Source: an uncultured Methylomirabilota bacterium
Lineage (GTDB): Bacteria; Methylomirabilota; Methylomirabilia; Methylomirabilales; 2-02-FULL-66-22
Direction: 5' to 3'
NCBI GenBank assembly: GCA_963845565.1
Contig: CAWJSJ010000004.1
Coordinates: 129,298 to 193,297, forward strand
DNA length: 64,000 bases
Shown here one piece after another: positions 5,716 to 58,766 of this stretch (within the stretch, counting starts at the first letter, position 1; every line of letters starts with the position of its first letter). The translations under genes and the position numbers were made by a program. The notes below the pieces were generated by a model. The model saw nothing but the letters and a program-made list of their open reading frames with translations. It was not told the origin of the DNA and searched no databases.

Positions 5716-5891
5716 CACAATGACCAACAACCTACCCCGGACTCTTCACGAAGGATTCGTGAAGCGTCCGGGCCGGGCCAACCGCGCGGCACGTCGTGCC
5801 CGCCGCTCCGCCATCTCGGGGGCACGGCGGCGGGCACGGACCGACCCCTGGCTACGGCGAGGAGCGTCCGCGGGCGCGGAGTTTCAGCCGC

Positions 5892-8271
<2,380 letters not shown>

Positions 8272-12405: not shown

Positions 12406-12513
12406 GCCCCGACCCCGCGTTCCGAATCCCCCGAGAGGCGAACCGCCGCGTGGGGCGGCGGTGTGGGTGACCAGCCGTGCGGCGCTGCGGCGCCGTACCG
12501 AAAGGATAGCTGC

Positions 12514-13998
12514 ATGGCGATCGAGAAGATCATGGGGAGCGAGACGGAGCTCGGCATCACTACCCACACCGCGTCCGGTTTCGATCCCGTGGGCGGCGCC
12601 ATCTTTCTGATCAACGCCGTGCCCGAGGAGGCGTCCTCGCGGGCGTTGTGGGACTACACGGGAGAGAACCCACTCCTGGACGCGCGGGGCTACGAGGCGA
12701 CCGGAGAACGCGAGCGGCCCACGGCCCAGGATAACCGTGCGCTCAACAAGGTGCTGGCGAACGGCGGGCGCCTCTACGTCGACGGCGCCCACCCCGAGTA
12801 CTCGACCCCCGAGACCAGCAACGCCCGGGATCTCGTGCTGTTCGAAAAAGCCGGGGAGCGGCTGGCCGACGCCTGCCGCGAGGCGGCCAACCGAACGCTT
12901 CCGCCGCACCAGCAGTTGGTGCTGTACAAGAACAACAGCGACGGCAAAGGGAACAGCTACGGCTATCATGAGAACTACCTGGTGGCCCGGAGCGTGCCCT
13001 TCGAGCGGTTGGTGGAGGCGTTGACCCCGTTCTTGGTTTCCCGCATCGTCGTGGCGGGTGCGGGCAAGGTGGGGGCCGAGAACGGCGCCGAGCCCTGCGC
13101 CTACCAGATCTCCCAGCGGGCCGATTTCTTCGAGACGCTGATCGGTTTGGATACCATGGCGAAGCGGCCGATCATCAACACCCGCGACGAGCCCCACGCC
13201 GACGAGGAGCGGTACCGCCGCCTCCACGTCATCGTGGGCGACTCCAACCTGGCCGAGGTGAGCACCTACCTCAAGGTCGGGACCACGGCCCTGGTGCTGG
13301 CCATGGTGGAGGACGGCGCCCTCCGGAAGGACCTCGCCCTGGAAGATCCGGTGCGGGCCATCAAGGAGATCTCCCACGACACCACCTGCACCCGGAAGGT
13401 CCGCCTGAAGCGGGGGACGGAGGTCTCGGCGGTCGAACTCCAGCGGGAGTACCTGGAGCTGGCGCAGGCCTACTACGCCACGGTCGAGCAGTCCCCCCAG
13501 GTCACCGACCTCCTGGAGCGCTGGGACCGGGTCCTGACCCAGCTCGCCGAGGACCCCCGCCAGTGCGCCCGGGAGCTGGACTGGGTCATCAAGCAGGCGC
13601 TCCTCGAGGCGTACACCAGCCGGAAGGGGATCGGGTTCGACGATCAGCGCGTCAGCATGCTGGATCTGCAGTACCACGATCTTCGCATGGACAAGGGGCT
13701 GTACTACCGGTTGGAGCGAGAGGGAATGGTGGAGCGGCTGCTCAGCGACGAGGAGATTGGCCGGGCCATGCACCTGCCCCCCACGGACACCCGGGCCTAT
13801 TTCCGGGGGACGTGCGTGCGGCGTTTCGGGGCGCAGGTGTGCGGCGCCAGCTGGACGTCCATCCTGCTGGACACCGGGGACGCCGCCGTGAAGCGCATCC
13901 CCATGGCGGAACCCGCGCGAGGGACGCGGAAACTGGTGGGCGAGATCCTGGAGCGCGCGGACAGCGTGAAGGATCTCCTGGAGCGACTGGCCGGGTAG
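12514..13998 (+). CDS. dop: Pup deamidase/depupylase Dop
   Basis: MAIEKIMGSETELGI..., carries the extra ~35-residue insertion (WDYTGENPLLDARGYEATGERERPTAQDNRALN) absent from the paralogue; 494 aa. Confidence 0.9.
   Translation: MAIEKIMGSETELGITTHTASGFDPVGGAIFLINAVPEEASSRALWDYTGENPLLDARGYEATGERERPTAQDNRALNKVLANGGRLYVDGAHPEYSTPETSNARDLVLFEKAGERLADACREAANRTLPPHQQLVLYKNNSDGKGNSYGYHENYLVARSVPFERLVEALTPFLVSRIVVAGAGKVGAENGAEPCAYQISQRADFFETLIGLDTMAKRPIINTRDEPHADEERYRRLHVIVGDSNLAEVSTYLKVGTTALVLAMVEDGALRKDLALEDPVRAIKEISHDTTCTRKVRLKRGTEVSAVELQREYLELAQAYYATVEQSPQVTDLLERWDRVLTQLAEDPRQCARELDWVIKQALLEAYTSRKGIGFDDQRVSMLDLQYHDLRMDKGLYYRLEREGMVERLLSDEEIGRAMHLPPTDTRAYFRGTCVRRFGAQVCGASWTSILLDTGDAAVKRIPMAEPARGTRKLVGEILERADSVKDLLERLAG
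13171..13679 (+). repeat. 509-bp block identical to 16278-16786 (inside dop)
   Basis: Line-by-line comparison shows no mismatch or indel at constant offset 3107. Confidence 0.9.
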
Positions 13999-15689: not shown

Positions 15690-15710
15690 GCGCCGCGCCG
15701 TGTGACCGCC

Positions 15711-17069
15711 ATGCAGCGGCGGATCTTTGGCCTGGAAACCGAATACGGCCTGATCTCCTCCTCCACCGGGGGGACCATGAGCCTCTCGGTCGAGAGCGCG
15801 CTGGGCTACCTTTTCGAAAAGGTGGTGTCGCGGCAGCGCGGCACCAACGACTTTCTGCGCAACGGGGCGCGGCTGTATCAGGACACCGGGTGCCACCCCG
15901 AGTATGCGACCCCCGAGTGCGACAATCCTCTGGAACTCACCCTGCACGACAAGGCCGGCGAGCGGATCGTCGAGGAGTTGCTGCTCACCGCGGAGCAGCG
16001 ACTGCGCGACGGCGGGATTGCCTGCGACATCTTCGTCTTCAAGAACAACACCGATTCCGTCGGGAACACGTACGGCTGTCACGAGAACTACCTGGTGGAG
16101 CGCACGGTCAACTTCCACAAGCTGGCCGAACTGCTCATCCCCTTCTTCGTGACCCGGCAGGTGTTCGCCGGTGCCGGGAAGGTGTTGAAGACCCGCCTGG
16201 GGAATCATTATTATATCTCCCAGCGGGCGCAGCATATTTACCAGGAGATTTCGGGGGCCACCACCAGCTCGCGGGGTATCATCAACACCCGCGACGAGCC
16301 CCACGCCGACGAGGAGCGGTACCGCCGCCTCCACGTCATCGTGGGCGACTCCAACCTGGCCGAGGTGAGCACCTACCTCAAGGTCGGGACCACGGCCCTG
16401 GTGCTGGCCATGGTGGAGGACGGCGCCCTCCGGAAGGACCTCGCCCTGGAAGATCCGGTGCGGGCCATCAAGGAGATCTCCCACGACACCACCTGCACCC
16501 GGAAGGTCCGCCTGAAGCGGGGGACGGAGGTCTCGGCGGTCGAACTCCAGCGGGAGTACCTGGAGCTGGCGCAGGCCTACTACGCCACGGTCGAGCAGTC
16601 CCCCCAGGTCACCGACCTCCTGGAGCGCTGGGACCGGGTCCTGACCCAGCTCGCCGAGGACCCCCGCCAGTGCGCCCGGGAGCTGGACTGGGTCATCAAG
16701 CAGGCGCTCCTCGAGGCGTACACCAGCCGGAAGGGGATCGGGTTCGACGATCAGCGCGTCAGCATGCTGGATCTGCAGTACCACGACGTGCGGCGCGATC
16801 GCGGGTTCTACTCCATGCTCTGCCGCGCGGGAAAGGTGGACCGGCTTTTCGACGATGCGACGATCGAGCGGGCCATGACGATCCCACCCCAGACCACGCG
16901 GGCCAAGGTCCGGTCGGACTTCATCAACTTTGCCACCGAACGGAACAAGTCCTACGATGTGGGCTGGTCGTATCTGAAGCTGAACGATCGGTACCAGCGG
17001 ACCATCCTCTGCAAGGATCCGTTCAAGCCGTTCGATCCGCGCGTGGAAGAGTTGATCAACTCGGCTTGA
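15711..17069 (+). CDS. pafA: Pup-protein ligase PafA
   Basis: MQRRIFGLETEYGL..., lacks the Dop insertion; C-terminus DPFKPFDPRVEELI. Confidence 0.9.
   Translation: MQRRIFGLETEYGLISSSTGGTMSLSVESALGYLFEKVVSRQRGTNDFLRNGARLYQDTGCHPEYATPECDNPLELTLHDKAGERIVEELLLTAEQRLRDGGIACDIFVFKNNTDSVGNTYGCHENYLVERTVNFHKLAELLIPFFVTRQVFAGAGKVLKTRLGNHYYISQRAQHIYQEISGATTSSRGIINTRDEPHADEERYRRLHVIVGDSNLAEVSTYLKVGTTALVLAMVEDGALRKDLALEDPVRAIKEISHDTTCTRKVRLKRGTEVSAVELQREYLELAQAYYATVEQSPQVTDLLERWDRVLTQLAEDPRQCARELDWVIKQALLEAYTSRKGIGFDDQRVSMLDLQYHDVRRDRGFYSMLCRAGKVDRLFDDATIERAMTIPPQTTRAKVRSDFINFATERNKSYDVGWSYLKLNDRYQRTILCKDPFKPFDPRVEELINSA
16278..16786 (+). repeat. 509-bp block identical to 13171-13679 (inside pafA)
   Basis: See partner copy. 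Confidence 0.9.
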
Positions 17070-17808: not shown

Positions 17809-18393
17809 CTATGGTGTCCGGACGCCGCCGTAGACGGGCCCGCCGTTGTCCACATACTGCCGGAGGACGGCGGCGGCCTCGCCGCGGCGCACGTCCCGGG
17901 TCACGCCAATGCCCCTCCGTTCCAGCAGTCCGGGCCAGTTGACGGGCTTGTCCCCTTCATCGAATCCCACCGCGCGGGCATCCTCGTCCCGCGCGCCGCA
18001 GGCCAGCCGCCGGATTCCCGACCACGGAAGAGATCCGAGACACATCGCACACGGCTCGGTGCTCGTCACGAGTTCAAAAGGGGGAAGACCGGCCGCGCCG
18101 AGATCGTGGGTGCCCATCAATCGTTGCGCGATGGCGATGGCCACCATCTCGGCGTGGGCGACGGCACACCCCAGGGGGACGACCAGATTGACGCCGGGCG
18201 CCACCAGGGTGTGACGCCGCGAGTCGAATACCGCCGCCGCGAACGGGCCCCCTGTTCCCCGGCGCACGTTCTGGCGGGACAATTCGATCACGACCTGCAT
18301 TCGGTCGTCGATCGCCGGATAGCTCTGGGTCGGATCCGGGACCACCTCGTCAACCCAGTCGGGCAGCCGAAGTGTCACCTCGGGATACCGCAT
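17809..18393 (-). CDS. CMP/dCMP-type zinc deaminase (guanine/nucleoside deaminase-like)
   Basis: HAEMVAI ... PCAMCLG zinc motifs; ATG 18393 preceded by GGAGG; the upstream part of the 368-aa ORF is non-coding. Confidence 0.85.
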   Translation of the reverse strand: MRYPEVTLRLPDWVDEVVPDPTQSYPAIDDRMQVVIELSRQNVRRGTGGPFAAAVFDSRRHTLVAPGVNLVVPLGCAVAHAEMVAIAIAQRLMGTHDLGAAGLPPFELVTSTEPCAMCLGSLPWSGIRRLACGARDEDARAVGFDEGDKPVNWPGLLERRGIGVTRDVRRGEAAAVLRQYVDNGGPVYGGVRTP

Positions 18394-18625
18394 TTCCACC
18401 ACCCTCCTTGCGGTTTCGCATGCACCGTCCATGCTCCGTGCGGTCACGCGCGAAACCGGCCCGCCATGGAGACGAGCAGCTCGTTCTTCATCGTGTTGAG
18501 CAAGAGCGCCACCCCCTAGCCCGCATTTTTCGCGAACACAGCTCGCGAAGAATGCGGACTTAATAGGAACCCCTGGGGGCGGCGGTCCGGAACGGATCAG
18601 GCGTCGCCGGTGCACGATGACACCG

Positions 18626-18678
18626 CACCCATCCTGGCGGATCGGGTACCCGTCCGTCAGGATGGGTGCCCGATCCGC
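18626..18678. other. Interleaved complementary segments (A-B-loop-A'-B'), candidate RNA switch/pseudoknot
   Basis: A CACCCATCCTG (18626-36) pairs with A' CAGGATGGGTG (18658-68); B GCGGATCGGG (18637-46) pairs with B' CCCGATCCGC (18669-78). Confidence 0.4.
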
Positions 18679-18923
18679 CCGCCGCCACGTCTCCTCCCGC
18701 TGCAGGCGGGAATGGCTACGCGTCAGGTCAGCCCGGATTCTTCGCGAATCCTTCGTGAATAATCCGGGCGAGCGGAGGCCGCCGGTCCGCACGGATGCGC
18801 CGAGTGTCCGACAGTGTGATCCCCTCCCAGGGTCCGACCGAAGTATCGCGTACGCCTGGCGGGGGCTCAAGGGGAGAAGGGTGCTGCGGCGGATGTCGCG
18901 CGGTTCTCCTGACAACTCGGGGG

Positions 18924-19056
18924 GCGGAGATGGGGGAGCGGAGAGCCGAGAGCGTAGGCTGGAGACCGGAGGGTCGAGCCGCGAAAACCGAGCGCCGAGA
19001 ACCGCGGGCAGACTTCCGAATGCTGAACGCTGATAACTGAACGCCGAAAGCTAGAA
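18924..19056. repeat. Heptanucleotide-periodic tandem array (19 units)
   Basis: GCGGAGA TGGGGGA GCGGAGA GCCGAGA GCGTAGG CTGGAGA CCGGAGG GTCGAGC CGCGAAA ACCGAGC GCCGAGA ACCGCGG GCAGACT TCCGAAT GCTGAAC GCTGATA ACTGAAC GCCGAAA GCTAGAA. Confidence 0.8.
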
Positions 19057-19512
19057 AGGCGGCTTCGAGTCGGGGGCTGAGATCCGTGGAGGAGCGTCGT
19101 CGGGGAGTGTGGGGTGGAAATGGTGATGGAGTTGGATGGCGATCTGGGCGAGCGCCTTGAAGAGACCGTCGCAGTATCGCTCGTCGTCGAAGTGGCGCTG
19201 GAGCTCGGAGTTCACCTGGGTCCAGAACGCCTGCGGTGCCACCCGCCGGATCTCCTCGCCCCCGACGACGGCGAACCGGCGCGTGGCCGTGTTGGCATAC
19301 ACCAGAACCGCCCGCGGCCGCGCCGCCGCCGGCATATCCCAGGTTTCGAAGAGAGAAACGGCGCGGGCCTCGGGTTCCCCCGAGGCCCGCGCGTCGATGA
19401 TCAAGCCGATCGGTTCCCCGGCATGGCGGCAGGCATGGGCCAAGCCGTCCTGGAGTTGCGCCCGCTCGGCGTCCGTCAGGAACGGGCGTCGGAAGGCACG
19501 CAGGAACTCCAT
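19051..19512 (-). CDS. TPM (TLP18.3/Psb32/MOLO-1) domain protein
   Basis: 153 aa; layout FLTDAERAQL...IGLIID...AVLVYANTATRRFAVVGG...DGLFKAL fits the TPM phosphatase fold family. Confidence 0.6.
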   Translation of the reverse strand: MEFLRAFRRPFLTDAERAQLQDGLAHACRHAGEPIGLIIDARASGEPEARAVSLFETWDMPAAARPRAVLVYANTATRRFAVVGGEEIRRVAPQAFWTQVNSELQRHFDDERYCDGLFKALAQIAIQLHHHFHPTLPDDAPPRISAPDSKPPF

Positions 19513-20887: not shown

Positions 20888-21090
20888 CCTCCTACGGTGA
20901 AATGAGAGAGCGAGAGAGATTAGAGGACCGACGGGCGCCTCGCTACCGGTGAGATACTAGCGCGAGCCCAGGTCGGATGTCCAGTCCAGGTGTCAGGTCG
21001 ACCTGGACTGGTCCGGCTTTCTGGGCTATAACATCGCGCGGGAGTCAAAGGCAGGCGCATCCGGACCGAACCCGCGCAAAGGAGTCATAC

Positions 21091-22663
21091 GTGGATATCC
21101 GTGTGAGCATCGGGGATGTAGCGACGTTCGCGGGCGATGGACTCGTCATCAATTTGTTCGAAGGCGTCGGCGCGTCGGGCACGACGGGCGGCCGCGGACG
21201 GTTGCGCCGCGGGACGCCGCTCGGTGGCGCGACGGCCGCGGTGGACGCCGCGCTGGGTGGGGCGATCGCGCGGCTCATCCAGACGAGAGAGGCGACCGGC
21301 AAGTGGGGCGAGCAAGCGCTGATCCATACTCTGGGACGGCTCCGGGCAGAGCGGGTCCTGGTGGTGGGCCTGGGTAAGGCCGAGGAATTGACGCTGGACC
21401 GGATCCGCGCCGCGGCGGGCGAAGCCGCCCGCGCACTTCGAAAGGCCGGCGCCCGCCGCATCGGCAGTATCGTCCACGGCGCAGGCGTCGGAGGATTCAA
21501 TATCGCTCAGGCGACGCAGGCGGTGGTCGAGGGCACGCTGCTCGGTCTCTACCGTTTCACGCGCTACCGGACGACCAACGACGCCGGCAAGGCGATCGAG
21601 CGCGTCACCTTGGTCGAACGAGACCGTCAACACCTCAAGGCCATGACCGACGCGGTACGCCGCGGCCGGATTCTGGCAGAGGCCGCCAACGCCGCCCGCG
21701 ACCTGGTGAACGAACCCGGCAACACCCTCACCCCGACCGAGCTGGCCCGCCGCGCGCGGGCGATGGCTCGAGCCGCCCGCGTTCGCTGTGAAGTCCTCGG
21801 CCCGCGGGAACTCGCCCGACTCGGCGCCGGCGGACTCCTCGGGGTGGCCCGCGGCAGCCAGGAGCCCCCACGCCTGATCGTGCTGACCCATGACGGCCGC
21901 CGCAGCGGCCCCCACCTCGGTCTGGTCGGGAAGGGGGTGACGTTCGACTCGGGCGGCATCTCCATCAAGCCGGCGGAGAACATGGAGGCCATGAAGGGCG
22001 ACATGGCCGGCGCGGCCGCGGCCATCGCCGCCATCTGCGCGATTGCGCGTTTGAACCTGCCCCTGCGGGTCACGGCCGTCATCCCGGCGACGGAGAATCT
22101 TCCCGAGCGGTTCGGCGCTCAAGCCCGGGGATATCCTGCGGGCGATGAGCGGAAAGACGATCGAGGTCATCAACACGGATGCCGAGGGTCGTCTGATCCT
22201 GGCCGACGCCCTGGCGTACGCGCGCAAGCGCGAGGTGACGCATCTGGTGGATGCGGCAACCTTGACCGGAGCCTGCGTGGTAGCGCTGGGGACGATCAAC
22301 AGCGGCGCCTTCACCAACAATCAGTCCTGGCTGGACACGGTGCTGGCGGCCGGCCGGGCGGCGGGGGAGCGGATCTGGCCCATGCCGATGGATGCCGAAT
22401 ATGACGAGCTGATCAAGAGCGACATCGCCGAGATCAAGAACACCGGCGGGCGGAAGGGGGGCGCCGTCACGGCCGCCAAGTTCCTGCAGCATTTCGTGGG
22501 AGAGACGCCGTGGGTCCACCTGGACATCGCGGGGACCTCGGAGGCGGACAAGGAGAAGGGGTACCAGCCCAAGGGCGCCACCGGAGTCATGGCGCGCACC
22601 TTCGCCATGCTGGCGATGGAGATGGTGGGGAAGAAGGAAAGAAAAGACGCCGTCAGCGATTAG
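21091..22663 (+). CDS. pepA: Leucyl aminopeptidase (M17); reading frame broken as written at ~22102-22105
   Basis: GTG 21091 after AAAGGAG. VGKGVTFDSGGISIKP and ATENLP are in one frame; PSGSALKPGDILRAMSGKTIEVINTDAEGRL continues in the +1 frame. An extra C in CTTCCCGAG explains the break. Confidence 0.85.
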
Positions 22664-22761
22664 CTTTCAGCGGTCAGCCTTCGGAGGAAACCGCCTCGCC
22701 CTGGAGTTGAGCGCTGAACGCTTAAAGCTGACTGCTGATCGCTGATCGCTGATCGCTACAC
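22650..22761. repeat. Heptanucleotide-periodic tandem array (16 units) filling a convergent spacer
   Basis: CCGTCAG CGATTAG CTTTCAG CGGTCAG CCTTCGG AGGAAAC CGCCTCG CCCTGGA GTTGAGC GCTGAAC GCTTAAA GCTGACT GCTGATC x3 GCTACAC; both flanking stop codons lie inside it. Confidence 0.8.
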
Positions 22762-24058: not shown

Positions 24059-25400
24059 ATGTTCCAGGGGCTCAGCGACCGGCTGAACGACATCTTCAAG
24101 CGGCTGCGTGGCTTCGGCCGCCTCAGCGAGGACAACATCGCGGAGGCGTTGCGCGAGGTGCGTCTGGCCCTGCTCGAAGCGGACGTCAACGTCAAGGTCG
24201 TTCGCTCGTTCCTCGAGCGCGTCCGTGAGCGCGCCGTGGGGCGTGACGTTCTCGAATCGCTCACGCCGGGCCAGCAGGTGGTCAAGGTGGTCTATGAGGA
24301 GCTGGCGGCCCTCATGGGCGGCACGGCCAACCGCCTGCGGACCGCCGGGCAGCCACCCACCGTGCTCATGCTGGTCGGTCTGCAGGGGTCGGGAAAAACC
24401 ACCACGGCCGGGAAGCTGGCTCGGCTCCTCCGGGGCCAGGGTCAGCGGCCGCTCCTGGTGGCGGCCGACCTCCAGCGGCCGGCGGCGCAGGACCAATTGG
24501 TGACCTTGGGCGGGATGGTGGAGGTCGAGGTCTACCGTGCCGCGGGCGCCACGTCCCCCGTCGCCGTGTGCCGCGAGGCCCTGAGCCACGCCAAGGCCCG
24601 CATGCTGGATCCGGTCATCCTGGACACCGCCGGCCGCCTGCACGTGGACGAGCCGTTGATGGAGGAGCTTGCGGGCCATCAAGGCCGAACTCAAGCCGAC
24701 CGAGATTCTCATGGTGGCGGACGCCATGACCGGCCAGGATGCGGTCAACTCCGCGGCGGCCTTTCATCAGGCACTGGAGCTGACCGGCTACATCCTGACC
24801 AAGCTGGACGGCGACACGCGGGGCGGTGCGGCCCTGTCCATCCGGTCGGTCACCGGGGCGCCGATCAAGTTCGTCGGGCTGGGCGAGAAACTCGACGCCC
24901 TGGAGGTCTTTCACCCCGAGCGCATGGCCTCGCGCATCCTGGGGATGGGCGATGTGCTGAGTCTGGTGGAAAAGGCCGAGCAAGCCGTCGACCAGAAACA
25001 GGCGGCCGTCCTCCAGAAGAAGCTCAAGGCGCAGACCTTCACCCTGGAGGACTTTCGGGATCAGCTTCGGCAGGTCCGGGGCATGGGGCCGCTCGATCAG
25101 TTGATCGGGATGATCCCCGGCCTGTCGCGCGTCAAGGGATTGCCCGACTCTGCCCAGCAAGAGAAAGAGTTGAAGCGCGTGGAGGCCATCATCGACTCCA
25201 TGACGCCCGGCGAGCGGCGTCGCCCGGAGGTCCTGAACGGCTCCCGGCGAAAGCGGATCGCGGACGGGTCCGGCACCAGCGTGACCGACGTCAACCGGCT
25301 TCTGAAACAGTTTGGCGAGATGCAGAAGATGATGCGGCAGCTCATGCAGGCCGGCAAGGGCGGGCGCATGCCGCGGCATCTGCCGTTTTCGGTCCATTAA
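24059..25400 (+). CDS. ffh: Signal recognition particle protein Ffh; reading frame broken as written at ~24671
   Basis: N and G domains (GLQGSGKTTT, DTAGRLH). ...DEPLMEEL continues as RAIKAELKPTEILMVADAMTGQD in the next frame; an extra G in CTTGCGGGCC explains the break. The M-domain is intact downstream. Confidence 0.9.
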
Positions 25401-32781: not shown

Positions 32782-32873
32782 TGTCCTGAGTTAGAAGTTC
32801 GCCAACATATTTCAAGGCCAGAGGGCGATCCCGAGGGTCGGTGGAATTGTTCGCGAACTTCTGATTCGAGATA
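32782..32873. repeat. Degenerate 7-bp-periodic spacer between convergent genes
   Basis: Units GGCCAGA GGGCGAT CCCGAGG GTCGGTG GAATTGT TCGCGAA CTTCTGA TTCGAGA TACTAGA GCTTAGC keep purines at positions 5-6. Confidence 0.5.
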
Positions 32874-40967: not shown

Positions 40968-41720
40968 ATGAAGATCGCAGCCCATCTCGATCCGGATGTG
41001 ATGGCCAGAGCCGCGGCGGACGCTGCGGCGCAGATCCTGCGGGATGCCCTGCAGCGCCAGGGGCGGGCGGCCTTCGTGGCCGCAACAGGCGCCTCCCAGT
41101 TCAACTTCCTGAAGCACCTGGTGGCCGCGCGGGGCATCGCGTGGGAGCGGACGACGATGTTCCACCTGGACGAGTACATCGGCCTCTCGGCGGAGCATCC
41201 GGCCAGCTTCCGGCGGTACCTGCGCGAGCGACTGACGAGCCAGGTCTCCATCGGGACGGTCTGCTTCGTGGAGGGGGACGCGCCGGACATCGTGGCCGAG
41301 CTCGATCGGCTGAACCGGACCATCGCCGCGGTCCCGATCGATGCCGCCTTCGTGGGGATCGGGGAGAACGGCCACCTGGCCTTCAACGATCCCCCGGCAG
41401 ATTTCGCGGTCGAGACGCCCTTCATCCGTGTGACGCTGGATGAGGCCTGCCGCCGTCAGCAGTTCGGGGAGGGGTGGTTCAAGACGCTGGAGGACGTGCC
41501 GCGGGAGGCCATCTCGATGACCGTGCGGCAGATCATGAAGGCGGCCCACATCATCTGCACGGTCCCCGAGAAGCGTAAGGCGCAGGCCGTCAAGGCCTGC
41601 CTGGAAGGAGAGGTCGGGCCCATGTGCCCTGCCTCCATCTTACGGACCCATCCGTCCTGCCGCCTGTTCCTGGATAAGGACTCTGTCAGTTTGCTCAAGC
41701 CGGCCACACTATCGGCGTGA
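40968..41720 (+). CDS. nagB: Glucosamine-6-phosphate deaminase family protein
   Basis: ATGASQFNFL...MFHLDEYIGL...VGIGENGHLAFNDP. Confidence 0.85.
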   Translation: MKIAAHLDPDVMARAAADAAAQILRDALQRQGRAAFVAATGASQFNFLKHLVAARGIAWERTTMFHLDEYIGLSAEHPASFRRYLRERLTSQVSIGTVCFVEGDAPDIVAELDRLNRTIAAVPIDAAFVGIGENGHLAFNDPPADFAVETPFIRVTLDEACRRQQFGEGWFKTLEDVPREAISMTVRQIMKAAHIICTVPEKRKAQAVKACLEGEVGPMCPASILRTHPSCRLFLDKDSVSLLKPATLSA

Positions 41721-41792
41721 CAGACGAGCCACGAGCCTAGAGCCACGAGCGGCGACCGGAGGGCCGAGAGCGTAGCGGGACGCGGAAGAATT
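41716..41792. repeat. Heptanucleotide-periodic tandem array (11 units)
   Basis: CGTGACA GACGAGC CACGAGC CTAGAGC CACGAGC GGCGACC GGAGGGC CGAGAGC GTAGCGG GACGCGG AAGAATT; shares CCGAGAGCGTAG and GACCGGAGGG with the 18.9-kb array. Confidence 0.75.
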
Positions 41793-41800
41793 CACGTCTC

Positions 41801-41950
41801 CTCAGGCTGCTCAAAACGGTCCAGATGCAAGGCGGAAGGCGCAAGGCGGGTCCCGGCCGCAGGCTGGGTCCAGGCGTACTCCAGGTACGCCGCAACGAGT
41901 GCCTCAGCCTTTCAACGCCGCAGATGGGCCGTTTTCAGCAGCCTGTTAGA
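41801..41950. repeat. ~150-bp palindromic, hairpin-rich dispersed element, copy 2
   Basis: Same termini (CTCAGGCTGCTCAAAA...GCAGATGGGCC.TTTT..GCAGCCTGTTAG); internal hairpins CCCGGCC-GCA-GGCTGGG and GGCGTAC-TCCAG-GTACGCC. Confidence 0.8.
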
Positions 41951-44807: not shown

Positions 44808-44855
44808 GCAAGGCGGCGGGATCAGAGACGACGGCGCGGTGCGCGCCGCATCGTC

Positions 44856-46192: not shown

Positions 46193-47095
46193 ATGGCAAA
46201 AGCTCGGGTGTCCATGGCAGGCATCTTTCCGCCCATTCCCACGCCCTTCGATGCGGCGGAGGAGCTGGATCTCAAGGCGTTGGCCGGCAACATCGAGAAG
46301 TGGAACAAGACGCCGATCAACGGGTACGTCGTGCTGGGATCCAACGGCGAAATGACCTACCTGTCCGAGGCGGAGAAGGTGGCGGTGTACGAGACGGCGC
46401 GGAAGCACATCCCGTCGAGCAAGCTCATGATGGCGGGCTGCGGTTGTGAGTCCACCCACAGCAGCATCCAGCTCACCAAGAAGGCGGCGGCGATCGGGGC
46501 GGACGTGGCGCTCTTCATCAGCCCCTGCTACTACAAGTCGAAGATGGACAACGCCGCGCTCGCGGACTACTACACGCGCCTCGCCGATGCCTCGCCGATC
46601 CCGGTGAGCGTGTACAACTTCCCGGCGAACACGGGCATTGACATGACGGCGGAGCTGGTCATCAAGCTGTCGCAGCACCCGAACATCGCGGCCGTCAAGG
46701 AGAGCGGCGGCAACGTGGTGAAGATGGGCGAGATCATCAAGAACGTCCGCCCGGACTTCCAGGTGCTGGCGGGATCGGCCGGGTTCCTGTACCCGTCCCT
46801 GGTCCTCGGCGCCGTGGGCGGCGTCCTGGCCCTGGCCAACATCGCGCCGCAGCAGTGCTGCGACATCCTCGCCTTTGCCAAGGCGGGGAAGCACGAGGAG
46901 GCTCGCCAGCTCCAGCTCCGGATGATCGCGCCGAACACCGCGGTCACCGCGGGCTTCGGCGTGGCCGGGTTGAAGGCTGCCATGGACATGCTGGGCATGG
47001 TCGGCGGCAAGCCGCGGAGCCCGATGCAGCCGCTCAGCGACGAGCAAAAGGCGAAGCTCAAGGGCATCCTGCAGACCGCGGGCATTCTGCAGTAG
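46193..47095 (+). CDS. Dihydrodipicolinate synthase/N-acetylneuraminate lyase family protein
   Basis: GIFPPIPTPF...GYVVLGSNGEMTYLS... Confidence 0.85.
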   Translation: MAKARVSMAGIFPPIPTPFDAAEELDLKALAGNIEKWNKTPINGYVVLGSNGEMTYLSEAEKVAVYETARKHIPSSKLMMAGCGCESTHSSIQLTKKAAAIGADVALFISPCYYKSKMDNAALADYYTRLADASPIPVSVYNFPANTGIDMTAELVIKLSQHPNIAAVKESGGNVVKMGEIIKNVRPDFQVLAGSAGFLYPSLVLGAVGGVLALANIAPQQCCDILAFAKAGKHEEARQLQLRMIAPNTAVTAGFGVAGLKAAMDMLGMVGGKPRSPMQPLSDEQKAKLKGILQTAGILQ

Positions 47096-47122
47096 TGTCC
47101 GATCTCCGTGGGCAATGGTTTT

Positions 47123-47157
47123 CTGCCAGCTGTCACCTGCCCGCTGCCAGCTGGCTT
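47123..47157. repeat. 35-bp CTGCCAG heptad module
   Basis: CTGCCAG CTGTCAC CTGCCCG CTGCCAG CTGGCTT, ending 5 nt before the tmRNA 5' end. Confidence 0.75.
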
Positions 47158-47162
47158 TTCAA

Positions 47163-47512
47163 GGGGGTGCAACGGTTTCGACGGGGGCAAGGGGGTACAG
47201 GTGGCATGCCGAGTCCCCACCGGCTCGTAAAAGGTGGGAAAAACACAACTGCCAATAACGAATTGGCCCTCGCTGCCTAACTAGCAGCGACGTCCCCCTT
47301 GCCCCGCTTGCCGGGTGAGATCGGGGCGTCATAAAGGCAAGCTAGGCTAGCCGATCCCGGCCCGGGGTCGGCCGGATGAAAACCAATGGGCTGGTCGTCG
47401 GGAGCCCTGCCGGCGGGGTTACCTGGCGACGAGAAAAAAACGCCGGCTACGCATGTAGAAGCCTGTACTGACAGGTTCTCGGACGGGGGTTCGACTCCCC
47501 CCACCTCCACCA
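47163..47512 (+). ncRNA. ssrA: tmRNA (SsrA), tag ANNELALAA
   Basis: 5' GGGGGTGCAACGGTTTCGACGGGGG pairs with 3' ...CACCTCCACCA (G3:U pair); tag ORF GCC AAT AAC GAA TTG GCC CTC GCT GCC TAA at 47251-47280; T-arm GGGGGTTCGACTCCCCC. Confidence 0.95.
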
Positions 47513-47516
47513 GAAC

Positions 47517-47550
47517 GAACGGGCTCCCCTCGGGGAGCCCGTTCGATTTT
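47517..47550 (+). terminator. Rho-independent terminator of ssrA
   Basis: GAACGGGCTCCCC-TC-GGGGAGCCCGTTC followed by GATTTT. Confidence 0.8.
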
Positions 47551-47594: not shown

Positions 47595-47628
47595 AACGGG
47601 CTCCCCTCGGGGAGCCCGTTTCGTTTTA
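47595..47628 (+). terminator. Second copy of the same terminator hairpin
   Basis: AACGGGCTCCCCTCGGGGAGCCCGTT (26 nt identical to the first) followed by TCGTTTTA. Confidence 0.6.
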
Positions 47629-47841
47629 TGCCATTGTGACGGTTTCGTTCATCAAGCCCGGCCGCCTGTCACCTACCCGCGGCCGGCCGGTCTTCAGTCC
47701 TCTGCCTTCCGCCTCCTGCTCTTCCCTCATCGACGAATTGACGAACGGCCTGCTTGACGAACTGACCCGTCGCCGTTTACCGCCTGCCCCCGCCCTTCGG
47801 CTCTCGGCACTCGGCTCTACAGACTCGCGCAGTGACCCCGG

Positions 47842-48123
47842 ATGTCACAGCCCTCTTGTATGATCCCGCCAGACGAGAGCCACCAGGGCGGGCGAGCGCG
47901 AATCAGCGGACGCGGCACCCTGGAGTCAGGGGAGGAGGACACCCATGCGGATGTACGAGCTGTGGAAACGGCGACGCCGGAGCGGGAGCCGCGCCGACTC
48001 GAAGACGCGGGCGGGCCGGTGCTGTTCGACCGGTCCTGTGACGCGGAGGCGTACTCGGCGGAGGATCGGGACCGCTGGGAGGCGCGCTTCACCATCGTGC
48101 CGGTCACGGTCGGCCGGGCCTGA
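47842..48123 (+). CDS. Small hypothetical protein upstream of the ClpP-fold protease
   Basis: High GC3 in the C-terminal half (VLFDRSCDAEAYSAEDRDRWEARFTIVPVTVGRA). A strong GGAGGAGG-ATG at 47945 is in another frame, so the start or frame is unresolved. Confidence 0.3.
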   Translation: MSQPSCMIPPDESHQGGRARISGRGTLESGEEDTHADVRAVETATPEREPRRLEDAGGPVLFDRSCDAEAYSAEDRDRWEARFTIVPVTVGRA

Positions 48124-55175: not shown

Positions 55176-55403
55176 CGCGTTTCGTTTCCCCCCACCGTTC
55201 GTATGCAGTTCCCTCAGCGACTGTTCAGTCTCGACGCCTTGACCGACCGCGAGCATCGTTGACCTGGTTGTCCACCGCCTTCGGACCGTCCGCAACCTCC
55301 TGCGTGCGCCCCAGCGCCCCTGCACCTCGGCGCCTCTGTCGCCTTCAGGTTTCCCTGTCCCGCTCGCTGTCGCTGGCGCACACGCCCTGCCCGCTGTTCT
55401 CCC

Positions 55404-55615
55404 CAATCTGCAATCTGCATTCGACAATCCGCAATTCCCATTGTGACCCCACATGTCACACATGTATGGCATCCTCGTCGCGTCGGCGCTTGAACTTGAT
55501 TGCCGATTGCCGATTGATGATTGCCGATTGCTGAACAAAGCGTAAGGCGCTGAGCGCTTAGCGCCAGAGGATTCCGTTCTCTGCCGGCTGCCAACTGCCC
55601 GCTGCCAGCTGGCCC
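55404..55615. repeat. ~210 bp of uninterrupted 7-bp phase (about 30 heptads)
   Basis: CAATCTG CAATCTG CATTCGA CAATCCG CAATTCC ... GCCGATT GCCGATT GATGATT GCCGATT GCTGAAC ... CTGCCGG CTGCCAA CTGCCCG CTGCCAG CTGGCCC. Confidence 0.75.
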
Positions 55616-55632
55616 TGGAAGGGAGGCTTCTT

Positions 55633-58160: not shown

Positions 58161-58268
58161 GCGGGCTCTCCTGTCTGTGCAATTATGCATTTGGAGTGCA
58201 CGATTGCAAGGCCAAAATTCACCGGCGGCAGGTGGAACAGGGAGACTGCACTCCGTCTCTCTGACTCG

Positions 58269-58339
58269 CTGCCTTCTGCCCGCTGGTAGCTGTACTTCAG
58301 TCCCCTGCCAGCTGCCATCTGCCCGCTGCTAGCTGGTCG
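58269..58339. repeat. Two adjacent CTGCCAG heptad modules
   Basis: CTGCCTT CTGCCCG CTGGTAG CTGTACT ... CTGCCAG CTGCCAT CTGCCCG CTGCTAG CTGGTCG, ending 5 nt before ATG 58345. Confidence 0.75.
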
Positions 58340-58344
58340 AAACG

Positions 58345-58669
58345 ATGAGCGGTCGAACCGGATCGGCCGGACGGAGGAACGGCAGGGACGGATCGAGGTG
58401 TACGACACGCAATCCAACCGCATCGGCGAGGGGGTGCGGCAACCGGACGGCAGCATCGACTTTCGGGACCCGCAGGGGAATCGGATTGGACGCACCGGCC
58501 CGCCGAGCACCGACGGCTCGGTGCGGTTTGACGATGCGCGTCCAACCGCGTCGGGCAGGGCAGGCCCGACACCACGGGGCGCTATCAGTACGAGGACCGG
58601 GGATCCACCCGGCGCGGCAGCGGCGACGCCTCGGGCCCCGTGTGGCTCCAGCGCGGCTCGCGGAAGTAG
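58345..58669 (+). pseudogene. Small tandem-repeat protein (SNR[IV]G repeats); start and frame unresolved
   Basis: ERSNRIGRTEERQGRIEVYD TQSNRIGEGVRQPDGSIDFRD PQGNRIGRTGPPSTDGSVRFDDA then (other frame) SNRVGQGRPDTTGRYQYEDRGSTRRGSGDASGPVWLQRGSRK*. Confidence 0.35.
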
Positions 58670-58738
58670 GCCGATGTTTCCGACTGCGCACGGAGGCGGG
58701 ACGGCGGCATTGGGGCGTTCTTTCCGCGTCCCAGCCCA

Positions 58739-58766
58739 CTGCCACCTGCTTCCTGCCAGCTGGTTT
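58739..58766. repeat. CTGCCAG heptad module
   Basis: CTGCCAC CTGCTTC CTGCCAG CTGGTTT. Confidence 0.6.

Follow-up and report, generated by a model that had tools for sequence, protein, structure and literature searches.

Degenerate heptanucleotide tandem arrays with rapid turnover in gene spacers of an uncultured Methylomirabilota bacterium

What are the tandem 7-bp units that occupy several gene spacers of an uncultured Methylomirabilota bacterium, how do they arise and change, and do they belong to a known class of repeat? The DNA analyzed here, hereafter the window, is a 64,000-nucleotide (nt) stretch of contig CAWJSJ010000004.1. A preliminary description, made from its letters alone, had reported heptamer arrays between gene ends at 18924–19056, 22650–22761, and 41716–41792 (arrays A, B, and C below) and, in a more degenerate form, at 32782–32873. 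The window has a GC content of 66.5% and carries the Pup-proteasome genes pup, mpa/arc, dop, prcBA, and pafA. The best genome match was L001, from a metagenome-assembled genome of an uncultured candidate division NC10 bacterium (PafA 96% and nucleotide sequence approximately 88% identical), which is syntenic with the window over 4–27.5 kb; more distant matches were to Methylomirabilota and then to Nitrospirota. Judged by these similarities, the host is a GC-rich member of NC10/Methylomirabilota and is not actinobacterial.

We measured self-identity at lags of 1–20 nt in the 7-nt register, using 2000 dinucleotide-preserving shuffles as the null. Array A had a lag-7 identity of 0.563 (z 6.8) and a lag-14 identity of 0.61; the corresponding values were 0.552 (z 7.2) and 0.50 for array B, and 0.571 (z 4.9) and 0.48 for array C. 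By comparison, shuffles of the three intervals gave lag-7 means of approximately 0.25–0.30, and other lags in the real DNA gave approximately 0.2–0.3. At all three sites, the observed lag-7 value was attained by 0 of 2000 shuffles, even when the best of lags 4–12 was taken. The claim of a 7-nt period therefore stands at three of the four cited sites and fails at 32782–32873, where the lag-7 identity is 0.27 (z 0.5). This fourth site is a near-perfect inverted repeat of approximately 40 bp, a long hairpin that fills a convergent spacer, and its predicted RNA fold is stronger on the plus strand (−54.2 kcal/mol, z −8.3) than on the minus strand (z −4.3). A scan of the entire window in sliding 49-nt segments, with a cut-off of lag identity ≥0.55, returned 223 segments at lag 7 and 153 at lag 14, more than at any other lag; lag 21, a multiple of both 7 and 3, came third with 103, multiples of 3 among lags 3–18 gave 44–71, and the remaining lags gave at most 53. 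Pooled intergenic DNA peaked at lag 7 (0.293 versus approximately 0.273, about 5 standard deviations), and the coding DNA of the window had no lag-7 peak (0.262). Periods of 7 or 14 formed the largest class of Tandem Repeats Finder (TRF) calls in the window, with nine sites that do not overlap.

Within the window, the strong arrays are limited to non-coding DNA. Genes were mapped with a codon-usage model together with Pfam, transfer-messenger RNA (tmRNA), and tRNA matches, and spacers were counted if they were at least 50 nt long (n = 50). All segments with a lag-7 identity of at least 0.55 were intergenic, although intergenic DNA makes up only about 24% of the window. The arrays occupy 7 of the 50 spacers (2 of 8 convergent, 1 of 8 divergent, and 4 of 34 tandem) and cover approximately 1.07 kb of the approximately 15.5 kb of intergenic DNA. 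The scan also revealed further arrays at 47095–47161, 47656–47842, 55374–55463, 55474–55628, 58265–58360, and 41809–41882. Those at 47.7, 55.4–55.6, and 58.3 kb sit 5′ of genes, so the arrays are not restricted to 3′ and convergent spacers, and their initial placement there is only partially correct. They are also patchy rather than present in every region, since an 18-kb locus of another strain that overlaps the right end of the window (L212) contains no array.

Array A (18924–19056, no strand assigned) consists of approximately 19 degenerate heptamers, located directly 3′ of a TPM-domain gene (19051–19512, minus strand) within a 648-nt spacer. Its first two thirds are of GAGCNNN/GCCGAGA type and its last third is of GCTGANN type (GCTGAAC GCTGATA ACTGAAC). 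Array C (41716–41780, plus strand; TRF 41724–41750) comprises approximately nine units of GAGCNNN type (e.g., CACGAGC and CTAGAGC) and begins at the stop codon of the plus-strand gene 40968–41720. Both arrays are unidirectional and unstructured (RNA fold z +0.5 and +1.8 for A; +0.6 for C), and they have opposite polarity relative to their upstream genes. The two arrays share a 12-mer and a 10-mer, CCGAGAGCGTAG (18946 and 41764) and GACCGGAGGG (18964 and 41754), which are found nowhere else; the sharing reported in the preliminary description is real. Array B is built differently. Besides the additional arrays and the 5′ locations, the preliminary description overlooked that this array is two opposed arrays forming an inverted-pair hairpin. 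The left arm (22650–22684, minus strand) has 4–5 units that read NNTCAGC on the plus strand and GCTGANN on the minus strand, and the right arm (22706–22761, plus strand) has eight GCTGANN units, including three consecutive copies of GCTGATC (TRF period 7, 7.1 copies). The arms pair as a hairpin (−53 kcal/mol, z −6.1), and the array sits exactly between two convergent stop codons, that of pepA (TAG, 22661–22663), contained in the left arm, and that of an AsnC-family gene (CTA, 22756–22758), in which the right arm terminates. With CTA at 19051–19053 in array A and TGA at 41718–41720 in array C, flanking stop codons lie within terminal units at all three arrays, as had been described. A second inverted pair, array F, has a left arm at 55404–55435 (minus strand; (CAATCTG)4.6, of GCAGATT type on the minus strand; TRF) and a right arm at 55498–55531 (plus strand; (GATTGCC)4.9, which is GCCGATT in the GCNGANN register; TRF score 54); these arms fold as a hairpin as well (−46 and −52 kcal/mol, z −3.9 and −3.7). 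On the plus strand, both B and F read (NNTCAGC)n, loop, (GCTGANN)n.

Two further observations concern the surroundings of arrays A and B. A non-coding block adjoining array A (18791–18915) is approximately 90% conserved in L001, far above the array itself; it had no Rfam match and no significant fold (z approximately 0). Next to array B, a G/T polymorphism at 22637 determines where pepA ends: strains with TAA at 22636 encode 515 aa, and read-through to the TAG at 22661 gives 523 aa, so that the tail of pepA is encoded by repeat units in some strains.

Independent assemblies of the same species, recovered by exact-protein look-up, allowed the arrays to be compared between strains; further look-ups of this kind gave no match. 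L081 and L082 are 99.5–99.7% identical to the window, L083–L085 are 98.8–99.2% identical, and L086 and L087 are approximately 98% identical where collinear (94–99% across blocks); four Joint Genome Institute (JGI) contigs also belong to this species. The arrays are present in at least seven independent assemblies from the European Nucleotide Archive (ENA) and JGI, and also in the 88%-identical L001, and their recurrence in independent assemblies excludes an assembly artefact confined to one contig. The number of units varies between orthologous spacers. L081 has two copies of GCTGATC where the window and three other strains have three, an exact 7-nt indel at 22.75 kb, and L086 has one TCTCGGC unit fewer at 47802. 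In L001, arrays are present at the orthologous A and B spacers and are heavily rearranged between flanks that are approximately 90% identical: its array A is orthologous but strongly diverged, and its array B is 28 nt (four units) shorter as a single MAFFT gap (net 32 nt over the anchored spacer) and still forms a hairpin with a 17-bp perfect stem (z −3.7). In L014 (approximately 76–80% identical), all that is left at B is a remnant, and an array is found in another, divergent spacer. Inter-strain single-nucleotide polymorphisms concentrate around array C, with 12 of the 54 in a 4.7-kb alignment falling within 179 nt, and the arrays are less conserved than their flanks. In these respects, the arrays behave as slippage-prone simple repeats with rapid turnover.

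Similar arrays occur outside the species. Among 80 labeled loci (1.18 Mb), period-7 arrays and inverted heptamer hairpins were found in the Nitrospirota loci L019 (z −7.3), L050 (z −7.8), L073 (z −3.1), and L048; (GCTGANN)n arrays, too, are found in Nitrospirota. In 1.25 Mb of NC10/Nitrospirota loci, RCTGA cores repeated at least three times formed nine arrays at 7-nt spacing (in the window, L001, L007, L037, L054, and L068) and none at spacings of 6, 8, or 9 nt. A scan of JGI metagenome contigs for (GCTGANN)4GCTGA, a query that fixes the core, returned at least 120 loci (L092–L211); among the matches listed, GC content ranged from 30 to 75%, the arrays had 5–37 units, and GCTGATA was the commonest unit. 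With respect to neighboring genes, the 61 listed arrays for which both flanks could be classified comprised 18 sense-tandem, 18 antisense-tandem, 18 convergent, and 7 divergent cases. The convergent share (18/61) looks higher than the genomic background, and the lack of strand bias relative to genes fits an origin at the DNA level. An inverted partner lay within 250 nt at 27 of the listed loci; here, the polarity 5′-(NNTCAGC)n...(GCTGANN)n-3′ outnumbered the opposite one by 22 to 5 (binomial p = 0.0015). Arrays B and F of the window and the array in L068 have this majority polarity.

We propose that the arrays are degenerate long simple repeats of the short tandemly repeated repetitive (STRR) type, probably created and remodeled by slippage, confined to spacers by selection and, where two of them lie opposed, forming probable terminator or stabilizer hairpins. 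Such arrays would arise, grow, shrink, and decay in non-coding DNA through replication strand slippage, the likely generating mechanism, to which template switching may contribute. They persist only between genes, which we ascribe to selection against frameshifts and stop codons, because each 7-nt unit puts translation out of frame and units with TGA or TAG stop all three frames within three units. Turnover is rapid: strains differ by unit indels, species by the units found at one and the same spacer, and more distant relatives by entire arrays gained or lost. Where opposed arrays lie side by side, the transcript of either strand could fold into a 20–40-bp hairpin, for which the fold scores of B (z −6.1), F (z −3.9), the L001 ortholog of B (z −3.7), L019 (z −7.3), and L050 (z −7.8) are favorable; these hairpins are likely to terminate transcription in both directions with no U-tract, or to shield the 3′ ends of mRNAs. 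Several points weigh against this explanation. Slippage alone leaves the preference for 7 nt unaccounted for. Unit positions are unequally conserved in array A, with positions 2, 4, and 5 better conserved than the others (chi-square p = 0.012). In NC10, in Nitrospirota, and in many metagenome contigs, one RCTGA core keeps coming back every 7 nt exactly (nine arrays, against none at 6, 8, or 9 nt, in the NC10/Nitrospirota loci), and the inverted pairs among the listed loci have a polarity bias (22 versus 5, p = 0.0015). Finally, arrays A and C are unstructured, so a terminator role cannot apply to them.

The remaining arrays of the window bear on the alternatives. Array D (47123–47154, plus strand; TRF) is (CTGCCNG)4 ending in the palindrome GCCAGCTGGC, and lies between the stop codon of the DHDPS gene (47095) and the tmRNA gene (47163–47512). 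It is one copy of a 48-nt element, designated D2, that consists of (CTGCCNG)4 plus GCCAGCTGGC and has four plus-strand copies, at 47118, 55576, 58300, and 58727. These copies are 63–83% identical, non-periodic flanks included, and each is located 5–50 nt upstream of a gene or an ATG, with one directly upstream of the tmRNA gene. In the second copy, (CTGCCNG)4 spans 55581–55612 (plus strand), 20 nt upstream of the ATG of a VWA-domain gene (55633). In array G (58268–58336, plus strand), two D2-like blocks of GCTGCCN type lie side by side in a divergent spacer, and an ATG follows 8 nt downstream, at 58345; a further, degenerate copy spans 58732–58763. Arrays E1 and E2 (47656–47842, minus strand; lag-7 identity 0.55–0.61; TRF 47797–47827) consist of CT-rich heptamers and (CTCTCGG)n; they follow the tmRNA terminators and precede a small open reading frame (ORF), and the (CTCTCGG)n of E2 is the reverse complement of GCCGAGA. 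An (AAGGCGG)×3 expansion (41829–41849, plus strand; TRF) lies inside one copy (41773–41950) of an element resembling a miniature inverted-repeat transposable element (MITE), and alignment of the copies showed a single AAGGCGG unit in the other copy (1723–1901). The GAGCNNN/GCCGAGA family is thus present in the first part of A, in C, and, as reverse complement, in E2; the GCTGANN family in the last part of A, in B, and, as GCCGATT/GCAGATT, in F; and the CTGCCNG family in the D2 copies.

The main alternative, which we consider unlikely, is that the arrays are multivalent binding platforms. A single-stranded nucleic-acid-binding protein (of the cold-shock, S1, or KH type) or a DNA-binding factor would read an RCTGA/GAGC core once per 7 nt, with a role in RNA stability, translation, or chromosome organization, and slippage would only adjust the copy number. 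Within an array, the core is kept while two to three unit positions vary freely, and the spacing of RCTGA at 7 nt, never 6, 8, or 9, together with the polarity of the inverted pairs, would suit such a reader; on the other hand, the arrays run with and against transcription equally often (18 versus 18). The metagenome loci, at least 120 with at least five GCTGANN units in which NN often differs, are consistent with a conserved core, but the search imposed that core and the argument from its conservation is circular. For Beggiatoaceae (TAACTGA) and Geobacter (MTYCTGA), heptamers with a CTGA core have been put forward as sites for regulators, and PMC4679880 cites CspB as binding approximately one heptamer per protein; for the present arrays, however, no candidate for such a protein emerged, and one window holds several unrelated unit families (GAGCNNN, GCTGANN, CTGCCNG, and AAGGCGG). 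Moreover, close relatives have gained and lost arrays, and 43 of the 50 spacers have none. In a bolder version, which strikes us as more doubtful still, (RCTGANN)n/(GAGCNNN)n would constitute a cis-element of wide occurrence whose 7-nt period is a genuine recognition code, read by a conserved factor at one core per heptamer, and its polarity would reflect a directional function, which could be, for example, factor-assisted bidirectional termination or RNA 3′-end protection. Such a code could be common to NC10, Nitrospirota, Geobacter, Beggiatoaceae, and many uncultured bacteria. If it is true that a factor reads the units, the arrays would be a general regulatory element, and a recognition code would account for the long-noted heptanucleotide excess in prokaryotes; if only slippage is at work, they are a matter of routine repeat annotation.

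It is rather improbable that the arrays are small mobile or dispersed elements, MITE-like or resembling doublets of repetitive extragenic palindromic (REP) sequences (REPINs), whose internal heptamers spread with them to new spacers. Dispersal of this kind fits only the D2 family, whose four plus-strand copies resemble one another beyond the periodic part. The 12-mer and the 10-mer unique to A and C might likewise suggest a common insertion, but they occur in a different order in the two arrays, which fits a shared unit vocabulary better. The inverted pairs superficially resemble REPIN doublets, which are inverted pairs of 20–40-nt imperfect palindromes with a cognate REP-associated tyrosine transposase (RAYT); the doublets at B and F have unit-periodic arms that differ between loci, and no RAYT was seen among the approximately 30 window proteins scanned. 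Neither terminal inverted repeats nor target duplications were seen around A–C, and orthologous arrays stay at their site and gain or lose whole units, instead of being present in one strain and absent in another. A single clear MITE-like element, with copies at 1723–1901 and 41773–41950, is found in the window and is distinct from array C. Array C had also been considered as a part of this adjoining element; the other copy of the element has no array, so array C is separate from it.

Contingency (phase-variation) loci, in which the unit number would alter promoter spacing or 5′-untranslated-region (UTR) structure and thereby switch neighboring genes, especially in the island downstream of the tmRNA gene, are a very improbable explanation, although they could apply to the arrays 5′ of island genes. 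Unit number is indeed polymorphic between strains, and D2, F, and G lie 5–50 nt upstream of starts in a strain-variable island with toxin-antitoxin and defence-like genes; however, the only polymorphisms observed are at 3′-end or spacer sites, the arrays are degenerate where phase-variable repeats are usually perfect, and A, B, and C lie behind the stop codons of housekeeping genes, a position from which the number of units cannot influence expression in the classical manner. A chance pattern or an assembly artefact, to which the non-periodic fourth site and the single-base indels of the window relative to four other assemblies might point, is excluded by z values of 4.9–7.2, 0 of 2000 shuffles at that level, and the arrays in at least seven independent assemblies and in the 88%-identical relative.

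Comparison with known non-repeat elements gave the following results. The hairpins at B and F are unlike intrinsic terminators in that neither is followed by a U-tract, and a scan for intrinsic terminators and sigma-70 promoters found no site at A, B, C, or F. In the parts scanned, canonical terminators occur only after the tmRNA gene, and terminator-like sites of the window overall were not in excess over shuffles. A search of the whole window against Rfam 15 at the gathering score matched only the tmRNA and one tRNA and none of the arrays, and a search of 18350–19100 at E-values up to 1 gave sub-threshold noise only. Five G-quadruplex motifs are present in the window, of which none overlaps an array. 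A rough post-hoc estimate of CTGA enrichment among the TRF heptamer consensuses would fail multiple-testing correction. Two functional candidates were considered. Strand-specific 3′-UTR elements were rejected because they do not agree with the metagenomic arrays, 18 of which are in sense and 18 in antisense orientation, or with the opposite polarity of A and C. The other candidate was Rho utilization by the C-rich unstructured strand of array A; Rho engages roughly 12–13 nt per subunit, a spacing unlike the 7-nt period.

That 7-nt tandem repeats are over-represented between bacterial genes has been recognized since the STRR work of 1990 and the genome surveys of 2007. The initial picture of non-coding, 7-periodic arrays that are related between loci and STRR-like is borne out: like the cyanobacterial STRR, they repeat a heptanucleotide in tandem and occupy non-coding DNA at many sites of the genome. 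They differ in their host, a member of Methylomirabilota rather than a heterocystous cyanobacterium, and in being degenerate where STRR are near-perfect. The units of STRR1–3 are CCCCAGT, TTGGTCA, and CAACAGT; no three-unit tandem copy of these sequences at up to two mismatches is present in the window. According to Mrazek et al. (2007), as summarized in PMC4679880, heptanucleotides are the most abundant class of long simple repeats in most prokaryotic genomes, and, as PMC4679880 and PMC4692102 relate, that survey named Burkholderia, Actinobacteria, Xanthomonas, and cyanobacteria among the heptamer-rich species and proposed polymerase slippage on a footprint of approximately 7 nt as the cause. 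The present arrays have the 7-nt period, unit-number polymorphism, and non-coding location of this class and, as far as those summaries describe it, also agree with it in the tandem arrangement, the excess over other unit sizes, the intergenic position, the GC-rich hosts, and the proposed slippage. They differ from the class as summarized in being more degenerate (55–60% identity between successive units), in lying mostly near or below ordinary TRF thresholds, and in that the unit changes along the array.

Among individual families, the closest parallel is provided by GC-rich Xanthomonas, in which intergenic GGGAATC arrays lie mostly 0–50 nt from a stop codon or overlap it, either stand alone or are paired in inverted orientation so that a stem-loop can form, and are kept between the same genes in two species, whereas their length and sequence vary extensively (Rehm et al., 2015; PMC4692102). 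The window arrays resemble these repeats, and the GGGGAYT repeats of Nostoc, in stop-codon proximity, inverted pairs, conserved position, and variable length; in contrast, their units have no G-runs and do not overlap G-quadruplexes, and the unit sequences and the phylum are different. TAACTGA direct repeats have been described in marine Beggiatoaceae, cyanobacteria, and Bacteroidetes (MacGregor, 2015; PMC4679880). They have the CTGA core in common with the present arrays, and TAACTGA in the window register is ACTGATA; array A contains GCTGATA ACTGAAC. However, no match to two tandem TAACTGA units at up to two mismatches was found in the window, and the Beggiatoaceae copies are mostly just upstream of starts whereas arrays A–C follow stop codons. 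The heptamer families of Geobacter metallireducens, MTYCTGA ×5 and GGACCGG ×4 (PMC2700814), differ from the present arrays in their fixed copy number. The unit families of STRR1–3, GGGAATC, GGGGAYT, TAACTGA, and GGACCGG were not found in the window.

The suggestion that such arrays are undescribed in this kind of GC-rich genome does not hold, as similar ones have been described in Xanthomonas (PMC4692102) and, by the summary in PMC4679880, in Burkholderia and Actinobacteria. A full-text literature search for heptamer repeats in NC10/Methylomirabilis, Rokubacteria, and Nitrospira found no such description among the papers listed. We therefore regard the arrays as a new lineage and a new unit set for an already known repeat class and not as a new class. 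They extend the phenomenon to Methylomirabilota (NC10) and Nitrospirota, document live unit-by-unit polymorphism between strains that are 98–99.7% identical, and offer two testable regularities, namely the RCTGA core at strict 7-nt spacing in unrelated genomes and the 22-versus-5 polarity bias. In practice, heptamer arrays can break short-read assemblies and mislead gene callers at stop codons.

Several minor observations were made elsewhere in the window. The tmRNA gene (202 bits) is followed by a canonical terminator; terminators lie at 47518–47550 and 47595–47627, the terminator being doubled by a 77-nt tandem repeat in the window strain only. The strain-variable island behind it (47.6–59 kb) carries WYL, Fic, ORF6N, Polbeta/HEPN, VWA, and DUF4143-ATPase genes, and other strains have ParE, HicB, PIN, and ISL3 genes at this position instead, which is consistent with integration at ssrA. 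Between 48 and 54 kb, the assemblies differ by many more 1-nt differences. The window has one extra base each at approximately 22098 and 24668–24671 relative to all four other species assemblies; the former splits the M17 leucyl aminopeptidase gene into ORFs 20977–22404 and 22145–22663. These extra bases are probably errors of the assembly consensus rather than signs of real pseudogenes.

Compared with the window, the syntenic L001 contig is missing the region of the argininosuccinate synthase gene (window 5722–7394) and approximately 280 nt (window 18107–18383) that form the 5′ half of a dCMP/cytidine deaminase-like gene. The MITE-like element is approximately 175 nt long, has terminal inverted repeats (AGCAGGCTGC.GAAAAA ... 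TTTTTC.GCAGCCTGYTA), and is also present in the Methylomirabilota-like contigs L004, L014, L086, and L087. L086 and L087 carry a 3.9-kb ABC-transporter segment that the window lacks at 44835/44859, with copies of the element both inside this segment and at one of its ends. Finally, the paralogs dop (12463–13998) and pafA (15702–17069), which encode the depupylase and the Pup ligase, share a 509-nt stretch (13171–13679 and 16278–16786) that is 99.6–99.8% identical, whereas outside this stretch, as in the pair of L014, the two genes are only approximately 76% alike. The stretch is also present in the independent assemblies L081, L082, and L085, and it therefore looks like the product of recent gene conversion between the two genes rather than an assembly chimera.

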